Source: a virus
Lineage: Duplodnaviria; Caudoviricetes
Virus record (IMG/VR): IMGVR_UViG_3300023047_000002
Direction: 5' to 3' (one strand)
DNA: 64,000 bases
Shown: one piece after another, positions 1,886 through 30,695 of the stretch
How positions within the stretch are numbered: the first letter of the stretch is position 1
Layout: the number at the start of each line of letters is the position of its first letter
Notes under the pieces: generated by a model
Seen by the model: the letters and a program-made list of their open reading frames with translations, nothing else
Told to the model about the DNA's origin: nothing
The model's database searches: none
Position numbers and translations under genes: made by a program

Positions 1886-3133
1886 GAACGAAGCGTTTGC
1901 CCGTGACAGTTTGGAGACTTGCTGCGTGATTTCATACGGCATATCTCCAAACTCCATTTTAGGAGTCTGTTTTATTTCCTCCCACGTGTAAGCTCTCAGT
2001 TTCATCAATGAAAAGTTTTCCTGCCACTTTTCAAAAGACGATTTTGGTTCTACATCTTCGTCATCCTGAACAGTGTCGTCAGACACAACAGACTTAGTTT
2101 CACAACCTCCGATTTCAGATAACTTTAAGGGTCGTAGCTCTTTTGGTAGTAACTCCAACTCATCTTCTGTTAAAACATCTTGTACTTCTTTGCTTTGTTT
2201 TGGTGTTTTGTCAGATGCAATTACGTCGGTTGACAGTAAACGGTCTATCCATCTGCATTCGGTCATTTTCAGTTTATTTCTTTTCTTGAAAGCATCACTG
2301 GCAACAACCAAGGATTCATGTGATGGGAAAACAGAAGTGTCCATATCAAGTGAGGTTACGAACTGTGCAGCAAGTTTGTGAGGGAATCGTGCAATCGCCG
2401 CCTTAATATTATCGCTGCTATCACCAACGATTGCACGATACATCGGGAGTCTGTCAATGGGAACTTTGTGGAACTTTTCTTCAAACTGCTCCATATACGA
2501 CAGGCAATCGACTATTTGTTTTCCTGTATCAATAATCGTGTCGCTACCAAGGCACTGGAACATGTCATTGTCAGACGTTACAATAACTTTCTTTCCTGGA
2601 AGTAATCGATTCAGAGTAAAGATAATGTCGTCTGCTTCAAGTTCTGGGTTGTAGTGGATATGCACACGGTTATACATCGAAAGCTCAGCCAGAAGTGGTG
2701 GCATGTTCTCACGTATATTGTAAGTGTGCTTTCTGTTCTCCTTGTAATGCTTGTTAATCTGCTTACGTACAGGCTTGCCGTCAACTGCAACATATACTTC
2801 GTGTCCATGCGACAAGATTCCCGTAATCAGTTCTACAACGAACTGCGTATCTTTCCATACCTGTGAACCACTTCGGAAATATCCGTAGTACAGCAGATAA
2901 GACAAATCAAGGATGAACGAACGTCTGTCTTTTATGTAATCCGTAAAGCATGTTATGAATTTACCTTCTCTTGCATTGATGTCTTGTGCTTTACACTGTT
3001 CATCACATTCACTTGAAACTTTTGCATCTCGTGTGTTTTCACGAAAGCTGAACAAGGGCTTGTTTGGTGACGGCATTGAGCCGTCCTTTAACGAGTTGTT
3101 GAAGTTTTGAAGTAACGTTGTAAGGTCTTTCAT
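1871..3133 (-). CDS. 5'-3' exonuclease / flap endonuclease (PIN domain, T4 RNase H-like)
   Basis: Motifs VAVDG, YKENR, EADDII, VTSDNDMFQ and IVGDSSDNI. Confidence 0.85.
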   Translation of the reverse strand: MKDLTTLLQNFNNSLKDGSMPSPNKPLFSFRENTRDAKVSSECDEQCKAQDINAREGKFITCFTDYIKDRRSFILDLSYLLYYGYFRSGSQVWKDTQFVVELITGILSHGHEVYVAVDGKPVRKQINKHYKENRKHTYNIRENMPPLLAELSMYNRVHIHYNPELEADDIIFTLNRLLPGKKVIVTSDNDMFQCLGSDTIIDTGKQIVDCLSYMEQFEEKFHKVPIDRLPMYRAIVGDSSDNIKAAIARFPHKLAAQFVTSLDMDTSVFPSHESLVVASDAFKKRNKLKMTECRWIDRLLSTDVIASDKTPKQSKEVQDVLTEDELELLPKELRPLKLSEIGGCETKSVVSDDTVQDDEDVEPKSSFEKWQENFSLMKLRAYTWEEIKQTPKMEFGDMPYEITQQVSKLSRANASFSSLV

Positions 3134-3184
3134 GGTGTGTTTCTCCGAGATTTGTCATTATAGAAGCACGTTGCGAAGTTTTCA

Positions 3185-3225
3185 GTTTATCACGTATTTC
3201 GACATTGACTACATTCAGCACCACG
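3185..3225 (-). promoter_or_regulatory. GTGGTGCTG-class promoter
   Basis: Minus strand: GTGGTGCTG-N26-TAAACT with TGa extension, upstream of the exonuclease. Confidence 0.7.
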
Positions 3226-5916
3226 CTACCTAATCACGCCTTTAAGTGGACATCCGATGTTCTGGTATAATGGATGAGCACCGTATTTCAAATGAATATG
3301 TACTTGGTTTGAAGGATTTCCGGAAGACACAAATTCAGGTGTGTTGAATTTCGCAATAATTGTTGGAATCTGTTCGATGTCAAGCACGCTGGACGTAACG
3401 GGATTTATGAAGTTCATCATCAGCTGCGTAAAGTACCCTGCTGAGGAATCGTTTAAATCTTTGTACTTGATATCCTTTCCAGACGAGATGTCATACAACT
3501 CCACATCTTTTATTTCTGGTTCCATTGAACACACTTTTATTTTTCTACCATTGTCCAAAGTGTACTCGGTAAGTTTGTTGTTAAAGCGCATCACGTTCAT
3601 GTCATACACACCTTTTTGGAATCCAGAACCAACATCCCAGTTTATGAGTCCAAACATGAAGTTGTCTATCGGAAGATACCCATTCTCAAGATAGTGTACA
3701 TACTTGTCCCTTTGTGCGTCTGACAAAACCCATGACTCGCTCTTGTGTTCTTTAACGTACAGGTCTCTGTACTTGATGAGAGATGACAGCGTGTATGTCG
3801 TTACGGGAATCGCAACATTGTAAATACCTAACAGGGCATACAATTGTTGTACAATCACGTTCGTAAGAAGTCCTGGTGCAAGAGAAAATGTTATGTTTCC
3901 ATTCGTATCGACATCCTCTGCATCGTAACCGGTTAATGTGCTCGCAGGAACTTTGACATCGCTTTCCAAGAACGATGTCAAAATCTCATTTGTCATTAAT
4001 CTAGACGCACCGATAAAGGATTTAACGCTGTCAATAAACACACATTTACCTGAGCTGTTTATAAGCGCAAAGTAATACCCGTCACCCTCTGATTCATTAT
4101 CTTGAAGAGACTTTGGAAGTGAAAATCCAATAACCATTGAATCCATTGTGACAGGTATCGTATCTCCTTTTGGATCTTTCGTGTCAATACGGAGTTTTCT
4201 TTTGCGTTTGTTCTCGGCATCGTACAGAATAGAGCTTATAACATCTTTCGGGTTGAAAACGTATTGTGATAGTTGAGATAAGCCGTTCCTTGATGCATGT
4301 GTATTGTATGTATTGATTAATGACTTTACCAGACTTGAGGATAAGGTCATCGTAAATCCTGCACGTATTATCGGGTCCCTTGCCATTTCCTTGAACACTT
4401 CTTTCCCGCCAAGAAGTAATGTGGAAACGGGTCTTACTTGGGTCTCATACGTTTCTGTTCTGCTTATAAACGATCCAGAAGAAAAGTCATACTTGTTTAC
4501 AGCAGTCGTGTATGTTGTTGTCGAAGTTACGATACGTATTGGTTTCTTTATTGTCTCTGTGTCGGATTTGATTATTGACTTCACCTGTTTACCATTCAGA
4601 TAAAGAGGCGTCTCTGTATACTTCTGCTCAGAAAAGAACTCCTTTTTGTCGCGTGGTGTCAGCTGAGTTGCTTCATAACTTGCCATGTCATTGGTGTACT
4701 TAGTCATACCTTGTACCAATGCATCTTTGAGCTGCGTTATAACCAGACGGTTAGCCATTTCCTGGAGTGTTACTTTATTGTCTGCAAGCCACTTTTTCAG
4801 GTCAATGTATTTGAATTTTAGAGTGCCTCCACTTCCTGTGTGTGAAACGTTCTGAGACAGGAAATTTGAAAAGGCTATCAACACAAGATTCTTTTTGGCA
4901 TCTTCTGGATTTTTTGGATTGAAGAAATTTACCCATTCTTTCTCTGTCGGTACACGAGCCATCGTGTACTCAAACATACGTTCAGTTGGGTCTTCCATAA
5001 AGACATTTCCTGATGATGAAGTCGAACCGGGTGCCGTAGAAATCCACTTGACATTTTTAACATAAGACAGTCCAAGAGCAGGTGGAAGTTTCATTCCTGA
5101 ACAGACAGGATTTCTAAAATTGACAGGTATAAATGCGTCAATGAATGGAAGTGCATCATAGGCTTCAAATGGAATATAAAACAATGGGTTTGAAGGTACA
5201 AAGTTCTTGCACGCACATCGTCGGAACAATCCCTGTGTTAATTTCCCATCAACAAAAGAAGCGGTTTCCGCAGGATATTCAACCTCTCGTGAATACGTGT
5301 TGTTTGTTCGTTTTCTGCTTGTTACATCGTCAATCCACACGATACGACCACAAAGGAACTTTGCTGTTCGTTTCTGTAATAGAAATCCCTTGACGAACTT
5401 TTCATACATGTATCCGCTTTGGATGCTCGCGTTCTTATAATCCTTTGAAGTTGTCCATATACGTACTTTGAACCATCCATAGTAAATCCCAAACGGATAT
5501 TGCTTTCGAGTGAATGAGTCATCACGTAACAGGTTTCCGTCCTTTGAATTTACATAGTAGAACTGCCCGCCTTTGACGAATCTGACTCCGTCGGTGCACG
5601 CAAGGGCACTCATATTTAAATACATCTCAGGCGTAAGCCCTTCATCCAGCTCACGAACTATTCCTGAGTGACAGGACATATCAGACTGTATGCAGTCTTT
5701 CCCAACGTGCTTTCCTGATACAGGACGGAAAGACGGTAATGCGTAAGAGGCCATCTTTACGTTCAGAAAATGCTTGAAGGAATGTCTGACATACATGTTC
5801 CCAGAGCGAGCCACATATTTCTGCAGTAGTGTGTTTGACATTATGTCGTGATAGTGGACGCTTCTGTGTGAAACAAGGAATTTACCGCCATGAGATTTTC
5901 GTATTCTTATCGCCAT
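3226..5916 (-). CDS. Large hypothetical protein, probably virion structural
   Basis: ORF of about 896 aa; likely start MAIRIRKSH after AGGTG. Confidence 0.6.
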   Translation of the reverse strand: MAIRIRKSHGGKFLVSHRSVHYHDIMSNTLLQKYVARSGNMYVRHSFKHFLNVKMASYALPSFRPVSGKHVGKDCIQSDMSCHSGIVRELDEGLTPEMYLNMSALACTDGVRFVKGGQFYYVNSKDGNLLRDDSFTRKQYPFGIYYGWFKVRIWTTSKDYKNASIQSGYMYEKFVKGFLLQKRTAKFLCGRIVWIDDVTSRKRTNNTYSREVEYPAETASFVDGKLTQGLFRRCACKNFVPSNPLFYIPFEAYDALPFIDAFIPVNFRNPVCSGMKLPPALGLSYVKNVKWISTAPGSTSSSGNVFMEDPTERMFEYTMARVPTEKEWVNFFNPKNPEDAKKNLVLIAFSNFLSQNVSHTGSGGTLKFKYIDLKKWLADNKVTLQEMANRLVITQLKDALVQGMTKYTNDMASYEATQLTPRDKKEFFSEQKYTETPLYLNGKQVKSIIKSDTETIKKPIRIVTSTTTYTTAVNKYDFSSGSFISRTETYETQVRPVSTLLLGGKEVFKEMARDPIIRAGFTMTLSSSLVKSLINTYNTHASRNGLSQLSQYVFNPKDVISSILYDAENKRKRKLRIDTKDPKGDTIPVTMDSMVIGFSLPKSLQDNESEGDGYYFALINSSGKCVFIDSVKSFIGASRLMTNEILTSFLESDVKVPASTLTGYDAEDVDTNGNITFSLAPGLLTNVIVQQLYALLGIYNVAIPVTTYTLSSLIKYRDLYVKEHKSESWVLSDAQRDKYVHYLENGYLPIDNFMFGLINWDVGSGFQKGVYDMNVMRFNNKLTEYTLDNGRKIKVCSMEPEIKDVELYDISSGKDIKYKDLNDSSAGYFTQLMMNFINPVTSSVLDIEQIPTIIAKFNTPEFVSSGNPSNQVHIHLKYGAHPLYQNIGCPLKGVIR

Positions 5917-16621: not shown

Positions 16622-16720
16622 GAACTACCCACCGCCTTTAGGCGGTGGTATTCAAATCCATTAGAATTTGATTTGTACATTCTCACGAATTGGGCTTCAT
16701 GTTTCATTGAACCGTTGACT
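16622..16720 (-). repeat. Partial copy of the TnpB omegaRNA/right end
   Basis: About 95 nt colinear with 28646-28740 (GAACTACCCACCGCC...CATTAGAATTTGATTT...CATTCTCACGAATTGG). Confidence 0.85.
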
Positions 16721-28223: not shown

Positions 28224-28623
28224 AGTCACTCCGATCCATCTTTATTCACCATTAATAACTAATGGCTACTATTAAATCACACCAAAACTGGTGTGGAGGG
28301 ATCTCTCATCGCAAGAAATATCTGCTTAAACAGGATGTTTCTTGCTCCGTTTATATCTCTGTCATGCACACGCTAGAAAGTTGGTGGCAGGAAACTATAT
28401 CCAGTACAGAAGATACCACGTATTACCATCGCCACCAACGTCAGAATGGTAAAGAATACAACGGCACAGAAGACGCCTAGAAGAATGTTTAAAAACGCAT
28501 CCATGTCGTTCACATTCCTGTACCTCTTCACAGGTATCACAAGGTTTCGTACAATCATTCCCGTCATCCTTGACCAGACAAATCATATCACAAACATTTC
28601 CAATGAACCCTTCCATCTTCAAA

Positions 28624-28815
28624 TCCATTCTCACGTTTGTTTGGTGAACTACCCACCGCCTAAAGTCGGTGGGCTTCAAATTCATTAGAATTTGATTTAT
28701 CCATTCTCACGAATTGGATTTCCTGTTTCAACGAACAGTCCACTCTACTAGAATTAAACCTAGTTTTGCTTCCCTGCCCTCCACAGGCATAAGTTCCGAT
28801 AGTTCCTACCGTACT
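28624..28815 (-). ncRNA. TnpB omegaRNA (scaffold plus guide CAAACAAACGTGAGAATGGA)
   Basis: Overlaps the tnpB 3' end and right end, as established for TnpB. The 5' limit is approximate. Confidence 0.75.
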
Positions 28816-30175
28816 TTTAATCTTGCTTATCGCGTCATTTCGCAAATTGATTGCCGCGTTGTGGTCACGATTATGTTCTACACCACATTCTGGGCAAATC
28901 CATTTACGAACGCTCAAATTCTTCACAGCTTCGTTCTTAAAACCACAATGACTGCACAACTGTGATGATGCGAACCACTTATCCGATTTAACCACGAAAC
29001 AGTTATGAAATTTGCTTTTCCATTCAAGCATATTCACAAACTTATTCCATGACACATCATTATAGTTTTTGGAATTGTGGCTGAAACGCATCATGCCTTT
29101 GATGTTCAACGTCTCAACACCAATCACTTCATAACTACGGACAAGACGTAAAGTTTCTTTCTCCATCCAATCACGTCTTTTGTTAGCTATGTGTTCCTCA
29201 AATTTTGCCAATCGTCGTCTAGCCTTTTCACGGTTTTTGGAGTCTTTCTTGGTTCTCGAAAAGTTCCTTTGCAAATGAGCCAGATGACGTTTTGCTTCTT
29301 GCTTGAATGGAACATAATTGTGTGCTGAGTGATTGTTTGAGTCAATGTAAGCCTTTGATGGTGAAAAATCCAGTCCGATAGCTTGGTTATCGTTACCAGA
29401 AAAAGACTTCTCTCTATCGTTCAAACTTTCATAGACGCAACAAATCGAAGCATAACAGCGTCCAGATTTTGTCACTTCGACGGTCAAATTCTTTCTCTTG
29501 ATGCCTTTAGTATGGAACCATGCAGGAATGTGGTTATGACGAAACGTTACTTTGCCAATCTTTGGAATTTTAAGCCACATCTCATGTTCTGAAATAAGAT
29601 CCTCCGACAGCATTACCTCGCTGAAAGAACAACCATCCTTTTTCTTCTTGAAACGTGGTTTTCCTTTCTTGCCCTTAAAGAACTCAGAGTATGATTTTTG
29701 AGCATCACGCCTAGCCTGTTGCAGAGCAACGGATGAAACTTCCTTCAGAAAAGGAAACAACTCACAAAGATCTTTCTCTAATGTGTATTTGAACCCTTTA
29801 TAAATCTTGTTCTTTTCGTCTTTGTTCAGGTTACGACCTTTGATGTTATCAGCGTAAAATTGTTCCCTTGCTTCGACGTATTTGTTGTAGACAAAACGAC
29901 GGCATCCACCAGTTTTGATGAACATTTGAAGTTGTTCTGGTGTTGGGTACAATCTGATTTTAAGACTACGCTTAATTTCCATTGGTAACTGACCTGTGTT
30001 ACTGACCGATATGTGTGGTGGCAAACACTCGGTCAAAGTGTCTTTCGGGGATCAGCCTAGCCACCAAACATATAAATAGCATAACATGATGCTTCTTTCA
30101 AGTGCTTGTTTCAATTAAATTGGCTAGCTTTCATCCCACGGTCTAAAGCCCTTTGGTTTTCAAGCTCACAGTATG
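28644..30175 (-). mobile_element. IS200/IS605-family (IS1341-like, tnpB-only) element
   Basis: Left end TTTAT|CATACTGTGAGC...hairpin at 30125-30175; right-end hairpin ending GTAGTTCAC at 28644; no tnpA. Confidence 0.88.
28660..29982 (-). CDS. tnpB: RNA-guided endonuclease TnpB
   Basis: KIRLYPT HTH; RuvC IGLD / GVETL / RDHNAAIN; Zn finger CSHC-CPEC. Confidence 0.95.
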   Translation of the reverse strand: MEIKRSLKIRLYPTPEQLQMFIKTGGCRRFVYNKYVEAREQFYADNIKGRNLNKDEKNKIYKGFKYTLEKDLCELFPFLKEVSSVALQQARRDAQKSYSEFFKGKKGKPRFKKKKDGCSFSEVMLSEDLISEHEMWLKIPKIGKVTFRHNHIPAWFHTKGIKRKNLTVEVTKSGRCYASICCVYESLNDREKSFSGNDNQAIGLDFSPSKAYIDSNNHSAHNYVPFKQEAKRHLAHLQRNFSRTKKDSKNREKARRRLAKFEEHIANKRRDWMEKETLRLVRSYEVIGVETLNIKGMMRFSHNSKNYNDVSWNKFVNMLEWKSKFHNCFVVKSDKWFASSQLCSHCGFKNEAVKNLSVRKWICPECGVEHNRDHNAAINLRNDAISKIKSTVGTIGTYACGGQGSKTRFNSSRVDCSLKQEIQFVRMDKSNSNEFEAHRL

Positions 30176-30269
30176 ATAAATGCCTCGCGATCATTCACAT
30201 TCCTGTAACTTTCAATCTGTATCCCAATATTCCGTATCATCACAGTCATCCTTGATCAGATAAGTTATT

Positions 30270-30695
30270 TTAGACTGATTTCCAATGAACCCTTCCATCC
30301 TCAAATCCATTCTCACGTTTGTTTGACAAGCCAGGCATCCTTTTTCCGTTTAATAATATCACAGCTTCGCAGTATAACTCATCATCACAGGACATGCCAC
30401 GAAGACACCCGATCATAATATGACAGGCATCATATACGGTTGTAAACACATTCAGATTACGCCACGGTAAAGGTTTTTTTGGGTAATGGTAATACTTGAC
30501 ACATAAAGTGCATTTCTTACTGTTTCTACCTGTTTGAACGCCAAGAAGTTCGCCTCTTGCAGTCACTGCATCGAGATGTTTGTCTCCATGTTGATTGATT
30601 TTAATGGTTTCTTCAAGCTGCTCTAAACTTACTTTGTCATTCCGTGCCATCGTGTTCTTTATCCTGAGTATTTTCCTTGTGGTTTTTCTGTTCAC
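30270..30695 (-). CDS. Hypothetical protein whose 3' end carries the TnpB guide match
   Basis: 141-aa ORF ending GLSNKRENGFEDGRVHWKSV. Confidence 0.55.
   Translation of the reverse strand: MNRKTTRKILRIKNTMARNDKVSLEQLEETIKINQHGDKHLDAVTARGELLGVQTGRNSKKCTLCVKYYHYPKKPLPWRNLNVFTTVYDACHIMIGCLRGMSCDDELYCEAVILLNGKRMPGLSNKRENGFEDGRVHWKSV

Follow-up and report, generated by a model that had tools for sequence, protein, structure and literature searches.

A transposase-less TnpB element beside a TAM-altered copy of its own target in a large gut phage: a candidate RNA-guided homing cassette

A 64,000-nucleotide (nt) stretch of the virus record IMGVR_UViG_3300023047_000002 (Duplodnaviria; Caudoviricetes), hereafter the window, harbors a single full-length copy of an element that its sequence assigns to the transposase-less TnpB/omegaRNA members of the IS200/IS605 family (tnpB-only, IS1341-type) and that resides in a large uncultured gut phage. 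The element lies between the two copies of a diverged direct repeat. One copy begins with a displaced gene end from which the guide RNA would be drawn, and the other completes an intact gene, gene X, which holds a perfect match to that guide behind a motif different from the predicted transposon-adjacent motif (TAM) of the element. We consider it moderately probable that the locus is an RNA-guided homing cassette that is self-immune through this TAM change. Below, we describe the element and its nuclease, the match in gene X, the alleles of gene X in related phages, and the foreign origin of the block that carries the element, and we then weigh this reading against its alternatives.

The element and its nuclease

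Along the minus strand, the locus reads gene X, repeat copy A, the element with tnpB only, repeat copy B, the rest of an intact gene Y, and a gene of 502 amino acids (aa). The element and its parts are as follows:

28644..30175, minus strand: tnpB-only IS200/IS605 element, 1,532 bp, bounded by blastn alignment to the copies L001, L027, and L019 and by contig break points in public runs
30175 (left) and 28644 (right), minus strand: element ends, CATAC from 30175 and GTTCAC finishing at 28644
28660..29982, minus strand: tnpB coding sequence, 440 aa, with RuvC residues D205/E290/D373 and zinc-finger pairs C343/C346 and C363/C366
28644..28870, minus strand: predicted omegaRNA scaffold, overlapping the tnpB 3' end and terminating in the right-end hairpin
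28619..28643, minus strand: predicted guide source, the 25 nt that adjoin the right end on its 3' side (CAAACAAACGTGAGAATGGATTTGA), placed from the sequence and the right-end boundary

The sequences compared with the window are referred to by L-numbers. L001, an IMG/VR copy with a 91%-identical TnpB, aligns by blastn to window positions 30178..28643. Thirteen copies of the element share the terminal ...GTAGTTCAC, after which the flanking bases differ (c/c/c/a/g/t/g in the copies compared), and four public gut runs, which yielded contigs of relatives only, show contig breaks at 28643/28644, with a further break at 30180. The shared terminus and the contig breaks together place the right end at base 28644, so that the guide runs from 28643 downward. 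The element contains no second open reading frame (ORF) and thus no Y1 (HUH) TnpA. Neither short direct repeats nor flank duplications were seen at other copies (L001-L003, L019, L022, L026, L027); the 150-bp repeat at this locus is not a target-site duplication, and the element sits, as IS200/IS605 elements do, 3' of a conserved motif without such a duplication.

TnpB is full length, carries the Pfam domains HTH_OrfB_IS605 (PF12323), OrfB_IS605 (PF01385), and Cas12f1-like_TNB (PF07282), and aligns end to end with the ISDra2 TnpB structures 8bf8/8h1j (phmmer, E 5e-55). An earlier note on this DNA had described the RuvC D/E/D residues as intact, and D205, E290, and D373 are indeed in place, as are both CxxC pairs of the zinc ribbon (CSHC, CPEC). 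The protein belongs to a family of ~60 clusters at 75% identity or more in gut metagenomes.

The last ~230 nt of the element probably encode a structured omegaRNA that overlaps the 3' end of tnpB and takes its guide from the flank, as suggested by the predicted fold and by the divergence of the flanks after GTTCAC. RNAalifold over seven copies gives 66 pairs, eight of them with compensatory changes, the terminal hairpin included, and the single-sequence fold of the region has z = -4.2. The sole Rfam match in the scaffold is a weak, sub-threshold one to RAGATH-18 at 28720-28787. In the minimum-energy fold, the 3' part of the guide pairs with an arm of the scaffold.

A guide match inside an intact gene

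The element is flanked by a diverged direct repeat of ~150 bp, whose two copies lie 1,682 nt apart and overlap the following features:

30176..30325, minus strand: repeat copy A, comprising the last 17 codons of gene X (S-N-K-R-E-N...stop), a spacer, and the first ~25 codons (~75 nt) of gene Y; ends in TTTAT
28491..28643, minus strand: repeat copy B, comprising the displaced gene X 3' fragment (28588-28643, reading NKRENGFEDGRVHWKCL and then stop) and the start of intact gene Y
30301..30325, minus strand: self-protospacer, a perfect 25-nt guide match inside intact gene X
30326..30330, minus strand: TAM position of the self-protospacer, CTTGT (codons GGC-TTG-T of G-L-S)
30176..30180, minus strand: left-end TAM (insertion site 2, in the truncated gene Y copy), TTTAT; the contig of a miniature derivative in public run X1 matches through 30180
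30270..30653, minus strand: gene X, 127 aa, a conserved phage protein of unassigned function
28373..28558, minus strand: gene Y, intact, ~61 aa, hydrophobic; lies after gene X in relatives, with homologues in L004, L010, and L013
30167..30240, minus strand: truncated gene Y' in copy A, which the left end of the element interrupts after ~25 codons (from alignment)

The recurrence of the flank in gene X, and the weaker similarity over ~150 bp beside the element, had both been pointed out in the earlier note and are borne out by alignment. The two copies agree at 47/48 positions over their first 48 nt, with the first 25 identical; identity is 84% over 90 nt (28554-28643 vs 30236-30325), drops to 69% past the gene X stop, and some similarity can be followed for ~150 nt to the left end. 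When the guide is shortened to 16 nt, it still has only two sites in the window, namely the flank and gene X. The target coincides with the most conserved C-terminal motif of gene X, PG[LIV]SNK[KR]ExGFEDG, in an alignment of 16 homologue clusters.

Gene X is intact beside an intact nuclease, as previously stated, although its start is more likely at 30653 (MARNDK..., as in the homologues) than at the 30695 proposed before. The protein matched no Pfam or PHROG family, and its AlphaFold model (predicted local distance difference test score, pLDDT, 66) matched no PDB fold at E <= 0.001. An ORF in an alternative frame across copy B (28395-28685) was considered as a real gene and rejected, its conservation being due to the gene X coding sequence and the gene Y ribosome-binding site. 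For the ORF that crosses the right-end junction, a protein search found only the protein of the window itself, and an identity look-up gave no second contig.

TAM consensus and gene X alleles

The earlier note had named a TAM unrelated to TTTAT and a lack of TAM-bearing alleles in relatives among the findings that would overturn its reading; on both points, the comparisons below came out in its favor. Seven independent left-end junctions read TTTAT three times (the window and L014 counted as one site, L029, and the run X1 mini-derivative), ATTAT three times (L027, L019, L002), and TCTAT once (L001), which predicts a TTTAT-like TAM with the consensus WYTAT, a TTAT core, and an invariant TAT. 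TTGAC takes the place of TTTAT in front of two mini-elements in the window, which are probably members of another subfamily.

We compared gene X across its 16 homologue clusters, with contigs taken from nine of them, and distinguish eight allele classes. The letters directly before the target include:

L004: GGTTTAT, followed by 25/25 of the guide; element-free
L013: GGTTTAT; six mismatches to the guide among the first 20 target positions
L030, L032: GGCTTAT
L031: GGTGTAT
L029, L042: GGAATAT
Window copy A, L010-L012, L014: GGCTTGT

The TAT is thus absent from only one of the eight classes, the one linked to the cassette: the carrier's own allele reads TTGT instead of TTAT. The contrast between TTTAT at the left end and CTTGT at the internal match holds as first described, and GGC-TTG-TCA and GGT-TTA-TCA both encode G-L-S in the frame of gene X. 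To call the TAM "synonymously recoded", as was done, is nevertheless an overstatement; the synonymous difference is real, but measured against the GGCTTAT of the clade it amounts to a single A-to-G substitution at TAM position -2, which we infer to be derived. We further infer that the TTGT allele is immune to TnpB.

L004 supplies the TAM-bearing allele that had been foreseen in a related phage, as its gene X presents the complete predicted target of the nuclease in a genome region free of the element. Scans of IMG/VR with the guide/target, a degenerate gene X motif, and the right end returned one real relative, L004/L005, and two chance matches; a single metagenome scan returned the L004 contig again, and neither near nor distant comparison with the GenBank phage collection gave a match to the window.

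A short identity also links the target to the scaffold. The 13 nt at 28699-28711 on the minus strand (CGTGAGAATGGAT) equal positions 9-21 of the guide and target (28623-28635, 30305-30317) and are kept in six of seven aligned element copies, and the next 7 nt of the target (TTTGAAG) recur in the element as well, past an 18-nt hairpin. Among random 25-mers drawn from the window, just 0.5% have 13 nt or more in common with the element. The K-R-E-N target allele that carries the 13-nt stretch is an outlier, other gene X alleles reading K-K-E-[T/S/I/A]. Such an identity could have arisen by chance, or it could mark a repair patch for which the element was the template.

A foreign block in a related backbone

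According to these alignments, the window is an L013-type phage backbone interrupted by a foreign block of 1,682 bp. Identity to the window changes along the locus as follows:

Gene X 5' part: L013 284/287; L014 66%
41 nt before the target: L013 46%; L010 97%
Copy A tail: L013 69%; L014 94%
Copy B after the stop: L013 96/97

From +33 onward, copy B is 99% identical to the L013 backbone, and farther from the block the backbone retains 96% identity to L013. The profile against L013 therefore runs from 99% to 46-69% and back to 99%, with short flanking tracts and the cassette in divergent backbones, as in co-conversion. The foreign block ends at the nearest conserved blocks, YCEA ~45 nt upstream of the target and GFEDGRVHWK ~32-48 nt downstream, so that the recombination breakpoints cluster at the target site.

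Three sets of contigs place the block in context. A bovine-gut contig represents the element-free form of the same backbone, joining 30364 to 28643 with 41 other letters between them. L014, which comes from another sample and a far more distant phage, shares with the window the CTTGT allele, the gene tail, and the TTTAT left junction, beyond which the contig ends. L010-L012 are element-free, copy A-like to +65 and copy B-like beyond. L010 looks like a derivative that lost the element and kept the predicted-immune allele, a mosaic accounted for by recombination between the two repeat copies that drops the element and retains the TAM change.

Proposed homing mechanism

The model takes its anatomy, its TAM consensus, its alleles (TAM plus target in a relative), and its mosaic ancestry from the comparisons above; guide expression, cutting, immunity of the TTGT site, and biased inheritance are the steps that we predict from them:

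(i) The mobile unit would consist of a replacement gene X 3' end, with TTGT instead of TTAT at the protospacer, and a gene Y 5' stub, followed by tnpB and its omegaRNA, the displaced original gene X 3' end that serves as the guide source, and intact gene Y.

(ii) The omegaRNA would read through the right end and take CAAACAAACGTGAGAA... as its guide. TnpB would then cut gene X in co-infecting relatives that have TTAT and the target, such as L004, and the carrier's gene X would be spared by TTGT.

(iii) The carrier genome would act as the repair template, with the YCEA block ~45 nt upstream as the left arm and GFEDGRVHWK in copy B as the right arm, and repair would bring in the whole 1.68-kb block, TAM change included.

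(iv) With genes X and Y both whole, the cost to the phage would be low.

(v) Later recombination between the repeat copies may delete the element and leave an immune, element-free allele, L010 being a candidate.

The layout probably arose from a crossover inside the element between an insertion at site 2 (TTTAT in gene Y), which would have given the left part, and an insertion at site 1 (TTTAT in gene X), which would have given the right part. The earlier note had likewise proposed a hybrid of two insertions, and this idea stands in part: both junction sites read TTTAT in the relevant alleles, but no genome with the element at site 1 was found among the 16 gene X clusters. A Y1 TnpA in a related jumbo phage and ~15 solo element ends in the window, both described below, indicate that ordinary transposition could supply the two insertions. 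Two other origins were rejected. A tandem duplication older than the insertion would call for an insertion precisely at the joint of the duplication, and unequal crossing-over between two copies in one genome would yield products of a different shape.

Weighing the alternatives

The main rival to a homing cassette is a passive relic combined with survivorship. Under this view, TnpA-mediated IS200/IS605 insertions and ordinary phage recombination produced the locus, the self-match is a by-product of duplication, TTGT is a neutral variant that chanced to render the layout viable, and TnpB serves only in retention or is inactive. Much about the surroundings suits it: the window holds ~15 solo right-end hairpins and mini-elements, the Y1 TnpA of a related phage implies that classical transposition operates among these phages, insertion hot spots lie in the gene X-Y region of several lineages (L029, L032, L042), other copies of the element lack a flank duplication, and the target in the L013 backbone is mismatched to the guide. 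We nonetheless hold this account to be rather unlikely, since four patterns are not predicted by neutral recombination and are those expected from break-driven conversion: the foreign block stops within ~45 nt and ~32 nt on either side of the target, the cassette allele is the sole one of eight without TAT, the 25-nt protospacer is perfect amid a repeat otherwise 69% identical, and the same tail and junction recur in a backbone only 66% identical (L014). A nuclease that is domesticated or dead, at most an RNA-guided binder on gene X in the manner of TldR, seems very improbable. TnpB-derived repressors do occur in phages (PMC10705468), and the guide does match a site in the phage's own genome; against this, the protein is full length with D205, E290, D373, and both CxxC pairs intact, the match falls at the 3' end of a coding region rather than in a promoter, and the broken TAM of the self-site would block binding as well.

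The duplication could also be an artifact, in which two coexisting strains, with the element at site 2 and site 1, respectively, were joined during assembly inside the shared 1.5-kb element, so that no genome with the duplication exists. No public run was found to contain the source sample (none of those listed had half or more of the sampled words), the right junction occurs in this assembly only, and the junction-side ORF has no second contig, all of which leave room for such a chimera. We judge it improbable all the same: both flanks belong to the same L013-like backbone and are syntenic neighbors, each parental strain would have had a broken gene X or gene Y, a site-1 strain is missing from the 16 gene X clusters, the simplest origin for the A/B recombinant L010 is a molecule that once carried both repeat copies, and the 64-kb window has just one full-length element copy.

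Several observations count against the homing cassette itself. The reading is built from sequence comparison, with cutting, guide expression, and spread as predictions; the right junction, that is, the right end with copy B, is known from this assembly alone; and a genome with the element at site 1 was sought in vain among the gene X homologue clusters. L004 is the only relative found with both the TAM and a perfect target, and the L013 allele, which has TTTAT but is mismatched at guide positions 9-11, 16, 17, and 20, would probably not be cut. Some TnpBs tolerate weak TAMs (PMC11043419), which bears on the predicted immunity of TTGT. Lastly, the left end of the element in L014 is 84.5% identical to that in the window, indicating either that the two cassettes do not stem from one recent transfer or that the element itself has been exchanged.

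Comparison with known systems

In anatomy, the cassette is, as far as its sequence can tell, a tnpB-only IS200/IS605 element of the ISDra2/ISGst2 kind. It shares with the TnpB/omegaRNA (reRNA) system of ISDra2 from Deinococcus radiodurans (PMC8612924; PDB 8bf8, 8exa, 8h1j) the domain order, RuvC triad, and zinc finger, a guide RNA that would run from the tnpB 3' end through the right end into the flank, and a TAM that is the motif 5' of the left end. Unlike ISDra2, it has a TTTAT-like TAM instead of TTGAT, no tnpA in the element, and a phage host; its guide would come from a flank that is one of two copies of a gene end, and the target recurs without its TAM in cis, at a distance of 1.68 kb. 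ISGst2 TnpB2 of Geobacillus stearothermophilus (Meers et al., 10.1101/2023.03.14.532601) likewise uses TTTAT. Its cleavage is very sensitive to TAM mutation, and it cuts the empty site, after which recombination restores the element (10.1101/2023.03.14.532601). ISGst2 thereby restores the element on the sister chromosome after TnpA excision, whereas the target proposed here is the allele of a co-infecting phage, and the present element carries its own predicted-immune copy of the target gene end.

In its workings, the cassette would most resemble the spread of IS605 among plasmids and the intronless homing of T4 Seg nucleases. TnpB drives the spread of IS605 among plasmid copies without TnpA (PMC11870625), a process named "transposon non-restorative homing" (PMC13565253); in it, as in the mechanism proposed here, an element-free homologous molecule is cut and repaired from an element-bearing one (PMC11870625). 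The IS605 drive is experimental and concerns simple insertions in plasmids, in contrast to the gene-preserving flanking duplication and self-immunity by TAM change that we predict in a phage. The free-standing homing endonucleases SegF, SegG, SegB, and Mob of T-even phages underlie intronless homing and localized marker exclusion (PMC155333, as cited in PMC13565253). They share with the cassette a nuclease gene placed between conserved genes, a target in a conserved stretch of a neighboring gene, self and non-self alleles that differ by few substitutions near the site, and short co-converted flanking tracts. They differ in that recognition here would be by guide RNA and TAM rather than by protein, immunity is predicted to rest on the TAM alone with the 25-nt target unchanged, and the nuclease is of the TnpB family, not GIY-YIG or HNH. 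TnpB homing between phages appears as a theoretical entry only in a 2026 review (PMC13565253), and full-text literature searches found no report of it.

Other IS traces in the window and its relatives

Apart from the element, the window contains ~15 solo right-end hairpins and mini-elements of ~50 nt from the same IS family (6032, 16632, 25404, 32609/32632, 34529, 42226/42239, 43410, 43950, 44991, 45952, 46041, 62760) and a fragment of a tnpB 3' end at 16639-16719. Contig record 5 of run X1 (bovine gut, 480 nt), which matches window positions 28750-28814 and 30127-30180, is a TnpB-less miniature derivative of the element, with the left end joined to the right-end region and 111 other letters replacing tnpB. 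L022 (1-280) and L019 (1-1320) have 100% identical TnpBs and a common right flank, with left flanks that are unrelated from element position ~17; the pair reflects either another recombination event between insertions or a chimeric contig.

L033 (G003:C1:185873-186235), on a related 252-kb jumbo phage contig, encodes a Y1 (IS200-type) TnpA (E 3e-34) beside a distant TnpB-like ORF, and G003 is the only related phage in which TnpA (PF01797) was found. Downstream of gene Y, L029 carries two different TnpB elements (2344-3762, 4170-4955), one encoding a 472-aa protein of another subfamily and the other belonging to the family of the window and inserted after TTTAT. Several contigs of relatives end in IS-end hairpins or element left ends (L013 1-28 and 4553-4585, L032 3835-3864, L042-L044), which indicates that assemblies in this phage group break at these repeats. 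L004 (4714-6252) and L010 (3720-4466) have one or two N6/N4 DNA methyltransferase genes, located between gene Y and the 502-aa gene, that are lacking in the window and L013.

Significance

In bacteria, TnpB cuts donor sites left empty, and it drives IS605 through plasmid populations. In the present locus, one gene family offers a compact natural test case: besides the carrier, it includes an allele predicted to be susceptible, with the TAM and a perfect target, another predicted to be immune and set apart by nothing but its TAM, and what looks like a derivative that has lost the element but kept the predicted immunity. The locus makes three questions accessible to experiment: whether a single TAM base decides between self and non-self, whether the role of a T4 Seg-type homing endonuclease can be filled by a nuclease with an RNA guide, and whether a flanking duplication lets an element sit in coding sequence free of cost.

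More tentatively, and as a possibility that we rate below the homing reading of this one locus, phage tnpB-only elements of this layout may form a distinct class of RNA-guided "intronless homing" cassettes that move between phages without a transposase, carry a spare target-gene end that is TAM-less or recoded, and use the displaced end as their guide, with the 13-nt guide/scaffold identity as a trace of element-templated break repair. If so, the element would reshape its own target allele. The locus bears on how TnpB-like nucleases could pass from selfish homing to conflicts among mobile elements, as en route to CRISPR effectors.

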